A stretch of DNA of 64,000 bases, from assembly GCF_013315695.1 (NCBI RefSeq), contig NZ_CP054353.1. The stretch is one strand, 5' to 3'. How positions within the stretch are numbered: the stretch's first letter is position 1; every line of letters starts with the position of its first letter. Positions 27,296-27,333 of this stretch are shown in pieces. Under the pieces are notes generated by a model that worked only from the letters and a program-made list of their open reading frames with translations, had not been told where the DNA came from and did no database searches. The DNA comes from Escherichia coli. GTDB lineage: Bacteria > Pseudomonadota > Gammaproteobacteria > Enterobacterales > Enterobacteriaceae. The position numbers and the translations under genes were made by a program.

Positions 27296-27333
27296 AAAAA
27301 AAACCGCCGAACATGTCGGCGGCTTTCTGACTT
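27296..27333. terminator. bidirectional rho-independent terminator (3' end of nuo operon / yfbM)
   Basis: AAAAAAAA-CCGCCGA-ACATG-TCGGCGG-CTTTCTGACTT; on the minus strand the hairpin is followed by a U8 tract, 14 bp after the nuoN stop. Confidence 0.7.

Follow-up and report, generated by a model that had tools for sequence, protein, structure and literature searches.

The hairpin between nuoN and yfbM of Escherichia coli: very probably a conserved intrinsic terminator of the nuo operon

Introduction

Bidirectional terminators located between convergent genes have been reported to be common in E. coli (bioRxiv 10.1101/2022.10.23.513370). Many of them do not resemble intrinsic terminators, and their stem-loop is needed to fix the site at which polymerases collide; head-on collision positioned by a stem-loop is a published route of termination (bioRxiv 10.1101/2022.10.23.513370). 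The bidirectional terminators defined by SEnd-seq (Ju et al. 2019), as that preprint summarises them, share with the element presented here a convergent gene pair and a single stem-loop midway between the two stop codons. In that class, the 3' ends of the two transcripts overlap, whereas the plus-strand side of the present element lacks a U-run. The element lies between yfbM and nuoN within a 64,000-nt stretch of E. coli DNA, hereafter called the window.

Another described class comprises the protective 3' stem-loops of Rho-dependent transcripts (Dar and Sorek 2018, PMC6061677). The steady-state ends of these E. coli transcripts are found just past stable stem-loops, with rut sites directly downstream, and the protective stem-loops are not followed by U-rich sequence (PMC6061677). 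The element of the window is alike in the yfbM direction, where a stable hairpin with no U-rich tail precedes C-rich RNA, whereas it differs in the nuo direction, the U8 that follows the hairpin being the signature of an intrinsic terminator.

The nuoN-yfbP terminator of K-12 is the orthologue of this element. Its 7-bp stem is identical, it lies equally far past the nuoN stop codon, and the CTTTCTGACTTAC flank is shared. The differences are one loop base (A in the window versus G in K-12), the U-tract, which reads U5-CUG in K-12 and U8 here, and the convergent neighbour: yfbP, a gene of the islet, in K-12, but yfbM in the window. RNAtag-seq and term-seq of K-12 placed a minus-strand 3' terminus at 2,389,988-2,390,002, with its peak at 2,389,993/4, in what was annotated as the nuoN-yfbP intergenic region, and the sequence given for this terminus, UUACUUUGUAAGUCAGAAAGCCGCCGACAUGCUCGGCGGUUUUUCUGAAAAA, is that of the orthologous hairpin (PMC10687069, Supplementary Data 2 and 3). 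The element is real and ordinary, and it is already known, since its K-12 orthologue is present in published 3'-end maps. It has little consequence beyond annotation. What it provides is a fixed 3' boundary, in the islet-free arrangement that most E. coli have, for a respiratory operon that is long and highly expressed; the boundary element is conserved across Enterobacteriaceae.

Layout of the element

The convergent genes yfbM and nuoN are separated by 66 bp, and the element occupies the middle of this gap (Table 1). Six G-C pairs and one A-T pair form the 7-bp stem, and the RNA of the minus (nuo) strand reads GCCGCCGACAUGUUCGGCGG followed by U8. The original prediction had described an A8 run, a GC-rich 7-bp stem and, on the nuo transcript, a hairpin plus U8, all of which can be read directly from the letters. 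Its distance of 14 bp from the nuoN stop codon is correct when counted to the edge of the interval 27296-27333 but not for the stem itself: the G+C stem starts 24 nt past the nuoN stop codon and 23 nt past that of yfbM. Counting the AGAAAG/UUUUUU extension as part of the stem shortens the former distance to 18 nt. In the MFE fold, AAGUCAGAAAG, which precedes the stem on the nuo RNA, is able to pair with the U tract and to lengthen the stem to 13 pairs; read on the plus strand, the same segment is a weak CUUUCUGACUU tail. The operon comprises 13 nuo genes and ends with nuoN, and the span from nuoA to nuoN amounts to 15,027 nt, in agreement with the predicted 15-kb operon. Gene annotation was taken from NZ_OZ547117.1 (E. 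coli isolate AF3), which matches the window at 100% identity across the 924 nt searched.

Table 1. Coordinates of the element and of neighbouring features in the window
Feature	Position	Strand	Basis or remark
yfbM, convergent neighbour	26777..27280	+	stop codon 27278-27280; ORF list, annotation
A8	27296-27303	+	read from sequence
U8 tract of the nuo transcript	27296-27303	-	expected transcript release site; A8 on the + strand
Stem left arm, CCGCCGA	27304-27310	+	read from sequence
Loop, ACATG (5 nt)	27311-27315	+	read from sequence
Stem right arm, TCGGCGG	27316-27322	+	read from sequence
Terminator hairpin, CCGCCGA/TCGGCGG, 5-nt loop	27304-27322	-	sequence, folding, Enterobacteriaceae CCGCC...GGCGG homologues
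CTTTCTGACTT, 3' of the right arm	27323-27333	+	read from sequence
AAGUCAGAAAG, 5' of the stem on the nuo RNA	27323-27333	-	sequence, folding
nuoN	27347-28804	-	stop codon 27347-27349; ORF list, annotation
nuoABCEFGHIJKLMN operon, closed by the element	27347..42373	-	RefSeq annotation of NZ_OZ547117.1, ORF list
C-rich, G-poor stretch, antisense to the nuoN 3' end	27350..27650	+	GC skew

An outer inverted repeat, GTCAG...CTGAC (window 27285-27289 and 27327-27331), flanks the A-run and the hairpin, and K-12 has a longer, near-perfect palindrome, TCAGAAAAACCGCCGA-GCATG-TCGGCGGCTTTCTGA. The outer repeat is probably non-functional, its left arm being missing in a strain that carries yfbN-yfbO (locus L011). 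An outer helix predicted on the plus-strand RNA, GGGGUCAGGG/CUUUCUGACU, was likewise rejected as a functional feature: it includes many G-U pairs, and its 5' arm is missing in strain L011 and reduced to UCAG in K-12.

Terminator strength in the nuo direction

In the nuo direction, the element combines a G+C-rich stem-loop of the size expected for an intrinsic terminator (stem of about 5-14 bp, loop of 3-8 nt), a U8 tract that abuts the stem, and a location at the 3' end of a transcription unit, soon past the last stop codon. An RNA folding calculation, which had been proposed as a check along with the original prediction, gave -18.6 kcal/mol for the minus strand of the 38-nt interval (z = -5.5, with 0 of 200 shuffles equal) and -12.9 kcal/mol for its plus strand (z = -3.7); the core hairpin has -11.7 kcal/mol. 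A discriminant d of the d'Aubenton-Carafa type, in which the hairpin energy per nucleotide is combined with a weighted T-run score, was then applied to every position on both strands of the window (128 kb in total). Its threshold of 0 is approximate in absolute terms, the energies having been computed with the modern ViennaRNA parameters. The minus-strand site reached d = +38.2 with a T-score of 5.27 and ranked second among all sites of the window, only 11 of which exceeded 0 on either strand. In 25 dinucleotide-preserving shuffles of the window, 2.6 +/- 1.6 sites exceeded 0 and none reached 38. A consensus promoter and terminator scan of the window did not list the hairpin among its terminators. 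This is probably an artefact of that scanner, in which maximal extension of the stem uses up six of the eight T's as partners of AGAAAG, so that too few remain for the tail.

Structure, rarity in the window and conservation (see below) are observations made here, and a 3' end has been published at the K-12 orthologue. In our view, the nuoA-N operon very probably has in this element its conserved intrinsic (Rho-independent) terminator; the prediction of a strong terminator closing this operon is supported, for one of the Rho-independent type, by the value of d and, at the orthologous hairpin, by the minus-strand 3' terminus mapped in K-12. The mechanism of release in this strain would be the following. 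As RNA polymerase completes nuoN on the minus strand, the nascent RNA would fold into CCGCCGA-CAUGU-UCGGCGG, and the weak rU:dA hybrid across U8 would allow release of the transcript about 45-50 nt past the stop codon. Afterwards, the hairpin would shield the 15-kb mRNA against 3' exonucleases.

Other top candidates for intrinsic terminators in the window are found at about 42928 (-), 55929 (+)/55910 (-), 48701 (-) and 54255 (+). The best site of the window, with d = 39.6, has its tail at 42928 (-), about 75 nt past the lrhA stop codon and immediately upstream of the nuo promoter region. Its counterpart in K-12 may be the 3' terminus listed at 2,405,618-2,405,628 (-) in PMC10687069.

Conservation beyond E. 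coli

One genome per species was scanned with a degenerate DNA pattern for a NuoN peptide encoded about 200 nt upstream of the stop codon. This anchor is independent of the sequence after the gene and hence provides an unbiased sample. A terminator with d > 0 was found at most 150 nt past the nuoN stop codon in 90 of the 110 gammaproteobacterial species loci with enough downstream sequence, and its tail mostly begins 23-60 nt past the stop codon, against a background of 11 sites in the 128 kb of the window. Enterobacteriaceae have a common layout, which consists of an A5-7 run, CC(C)GCC, a variable inner stem and loop, GGC(G)GG and T7-8, and which is seen in Citrobacter, Enterobacter, Kluyvera, Cedecea, Pluralibacter, Pseudescherichia, Kosakonia, Salmonella and others. 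Like the E. coli element, the nuoN terminators of Citrobacter, Enterobacter, Kluyvera, Cedecea, Pluralibacter and Salmonella have a CCGCC...GGCGG stem, a short loop and T7-8, and they lie 23-50 nt past the nuoN stop codon.

When 20 Enterobacteriaceae hairpins, including that of the window, were aligned, the consensus stem comprised 11 pairs with an invariant CCGC/GCGG core. Three of the pairs show two-sided compensatory changes, as in CCGCCA...TGGCGG of Cedecea neteri. Support from covariation comes only from other genera, because the stem never varies within E. coli, and the homology of such short hairpins across genera is less certain. By tblastn over 118 loci, yfbM adjoins nuoN in E. coli only and in no other genus, so outgroups cannot polarise the ancestral state of this junction.

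The yfbM direction

Read from the other side, the hairpin was also predicted to terminate yfbM. The location is that of a bidirectional terminator, yfbM (+) and nuoN (-) being convergent, but a hairpin followed by a U-run is not present on both strands. The plus-strand tail after the hairpin is CUUUCUGA, which includes no U-run. The T-score of the plus-strand hairpin is 1.79, and its d of -24.4 falls short of the threshold of 0. About 90 sites of the window have d of at least -24.4, and the shuffles give 51 +/- 9, which is chance level. As the hairpin has no U-run on this side, the element would be at best a weak terminator toward yfbM.

A genuinely bidirectional terminator, in which one hairpin ends both nuo and yfbM, either intrinsically both ways or through programmed head-on collisions of polymerases at a site set by the stem-loop, is a reading that we find doubtful. 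In its favour, the genes are convergent and the hairpin sits nearly exactly in the middle of the gap. In the yfbM direction, A8 precedes the stem, and one C and then three U's come past it. The class described above is reported to be common between convergent E. coli genes and often unlike intrinsic terminators (bioRxiv 10.1101/2022.10.23.513370). In addition, the sequence is symmetric in more than half of the nuoN terminators of other species, 54 of 90 having d > 0 in reverse as well. Against it stand the plus-strand value of d, the T-score of 1.79 versus 5.27 on the nuo side, and the roughly 50 occurrences expected by chance from the shuffles. The symmetry seen elsewhere is also independent of the orientation of the neighbour: by a crude ORF heuristic, reverse-positive terminators make up 27 of 42 loci whose nearest downstream ORF is convergent and 23 of 41 whose nearest ORF is co-directional. 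Finally, neither a plus-strand terminus at the K-12 hairpin nor any terminus of yfbM is listed in the available part of the PMC10687069 tables, with the reservation that the convergent gene in K-12 is yfbP and not yfbM.

The reverse score of the E. coli representative is among the lowest of the sampled species, which places this element among the least symmetric; E. coli has therefore lost the second A/T-run, with which the element would be symmetric. In most of the relatives, an A5-7 run on the 5' side makes the sequence symmetric, whereas E. coli has UCAGAAAG there and is asymmetric. Neither the bidirectional reading nor the description as a clean example of a shared terminator is well supported, and a hairpin shared by two convergent genes does not by itself amount to bidirectional termination. 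As a separate observation, many genera (loci L014-L127, 20-60 nt past the nuoN stop codon) have a near-palindromic layout of A6-7, CCGCC...GGCGG and TTTTTTTAT, which is retained with a convergent or a co-directional next ORF alike.

For the yfbM transcripts themselves, what follows is inferred from base composition and gene arrangement. The plus-strand GC skew is -0.26 at 27350-27449 and -0.28 at 27550-27649, and the C-rich stretch of Table 1 would be a candidate Rho-loading region for yfbM read-through. The antisense RNA downstream of the hairpin would be untranslated, and yfbM transcripts would more likely be stopped by Rho in this C-rich RNA antisense to nuoN, by head-on collision with the nuo polymerases, which would be far more numerous, or by both. 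Toward yfbM, the hairpin would act as a structure that positions collisions or protects 3' ends. A plus-strand 3' end at the hairpin alone would not prove that termination takes place there.

Published transcript ends and 3' protection

The transcript-end data cited here come from K-12 and from strain E2348/69. In the latter, ONT direct RNA-seq led to the prediction of a 15,256-nt nuoABCEFGHIJKLMN mRNA, the longest transcript of the strain (PMC11481537). Compared with the coding span of 15,027 nt, this leaves about 230 nt for both untranslated regions, which is consistent with an end soon after nuoN; the supplements of that study do not mention nuoN or yfbM. The nuo example of PMC10349824 concerns the nuoC/nuoE junction and not the end of the operon. 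For K-12, the available part of the Term-seq tables of PMC7815308 calls no 3' end at the hairpin. The same source reports a bicyclomycin-sensitive region that peaks at 2,389,543 (-), antisense to yfbP and about 460 nt past the hairpin, with a coverage after bicyclomycin of 457 downstream and 315 upstream. This region could reflect read-through of the U5 terminator of K-12, or it may instead reflect transcription that starts inside the islet, and it is treated here as ambiguous. Whether present at the hairpin or absent from it, 3' ends cannot separate termination from exonucleolytic trimming back to a stable hairpin (PMC6061677).

The hairpin might accordingly be mainly a 3'-protective structure, with Rho stopping transcription further downstream and exonucleases trimming the RNA back to the stem-loop. 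Such an architecture, with Rho-dependent ends at stable stem-loops, has been described (PMC6061677), and the bicyclomycin-sensitive region of K-12 lies on the nuo strand beyond the hairpin. It also fits the yfbM direction well, where the hairpin lacks a U-run and C-rich RNA follows. We nevertheless consider it improbable as the main role of the element. On the nuo RNA, a perfect U8 comes after the hairpin, whereas the protective class has no U-rich sequence (PMC6061677), and the U-run past the hairpin is conserved in the 90 of 110 species mentioned above. Moreover, the K-12 coverage after bicyclomycin is higher downstream than upstream, in the available data, which suggests transcription from inside the AT-rich islet. 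That the element belongs to a known repeat or RNA family (REP/BIME, small RNA or riboswitch) can practically be dismissed: the weak overlapping Rfam matches obtained at a permissive threshold (ryfA, 17.8 bits; sroD, 18.6 bits; fluoride riboswitch, 16.1 bits) are far under their gathering scores of 80, 50 and 34 bits, have E-values of 0.07-1.2 and span little beyond a generic hairpin, and the element occupies a single fixed locus, with a median of 1 place per genome. Membership of REP/BIME or of a curated Rfam family was rejected on the same grounds, the best matches having 14-19 bits against gathering scores of 34-97.

Variation within E. coli

An intrinsic terminator of the nuo operon, the preferred reading, is also favoured by what is found across the species. 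Among 5,426 complete E. coli genomes, 5,420 have a match to the hairpin region next to nuoN, and K-12 is one of them. The direct yfbM-nuoN junction, with no islet, is the majority arrangement (4,211-4,309 of the 5,426 genomes, about 78%). The gap was read in 11 E. coli sequences, that of the window among them. Wherever the hairpin is intact, its stem arms are invariant in all 11, the exception being a strain in which ISEcB1 splits it. One loop base is variable (A/G), the spacers flanking the hairpin carry several substitutions, and the A-run has a length of A7, A8 or A9 in E. coli and of A5 in K-12.

In K-12 MG1655, the same hairpin is found 24 nt past the nuoN stop codon. An islet of 2,562 bp (L001 3439-6000) with 39.7% GC, which carries yfbN, yfbO and yfbP, starts directly after the yfbM stop codon and reaches to the A-run, so that it abuts the U-run of the nuo RNA. 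It leaves GAAAAA, from which the nuo RNA reads U5 and then CUG, and d is 15.3 there versus 38.2 in the window. The original prediction had the terminator replace the yfbN-P interval of K-12, a description that does not hold: K-12 keeps the hairpin and has an AT-rich islet in addition, and it is the islet-free junction that is in the majority. Terminator efficiencies derived from K-12, with its U5 rather than U7-9, may understate those of most E. coli.

Another strain (L011 2375-4000) has an 86%-identical islet with yfbN-yfbO, no yfbP and 37% GC. The yfbN-yfbO(-yfbP) arrangement suggests an old, diverged islet polymorphism that shares the same two boundaries. The 15-nt spacer TGGGGTCAGGGCACC was not found inside the K-12 islet with up to 3 mismatches; hence, no remnant or direct repeat of it marks the islet ends. 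In strain O15_8X (L012 ~2563-3990), the IS3-family element ISEcB1 is inserted in the hairpin loop, with a duplicated CATG on both sides. It parts the stem arms by about 1.4 kb and is, by sequence, a natural terminator knockout. Strain Z0117EC0062 (L003 ~2024-2732) has an IS200 inside the A-run, with tnpA on the nuo strand; its hairpin retains 8 A's, that is U8 on the nuo RNA, and 4 more A's lie beyond the IS200.

Four structural variants, called independent here, have breakpoints in the hairpin or within a few bases of it: the yfbNOP islet, the diverged yfbNO islet, IS200 and ISEcB1. It is conceivable, if rather unlikely, that the A/U-run at the foot of the nuo terminator is a recurrent insertion junction and that insertions tune terminator strength between strains. 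The clustering of breakpoints and the variation of the U-run (U5 in K-12, U7-9 elsewhere) could make terminator strength variable among lineages. If this were true, the nuo terminator of K-12 would be atypically leaky, read-through into neighbouring DNA would depend on the lineage, and the ISEcB1 strain would serve as a natural terminator knockout.

A second presence/absence difference lies a few kb from the terminator. In the window, elaD (24105-25316) is directly followed by yfbL (25703-26674), with no yfbK in the interval 25317-25702, and in K-12 (L001 1-1860) the 1.7-kb vWA-domain gene yfbK lies between elaD and yfbL.
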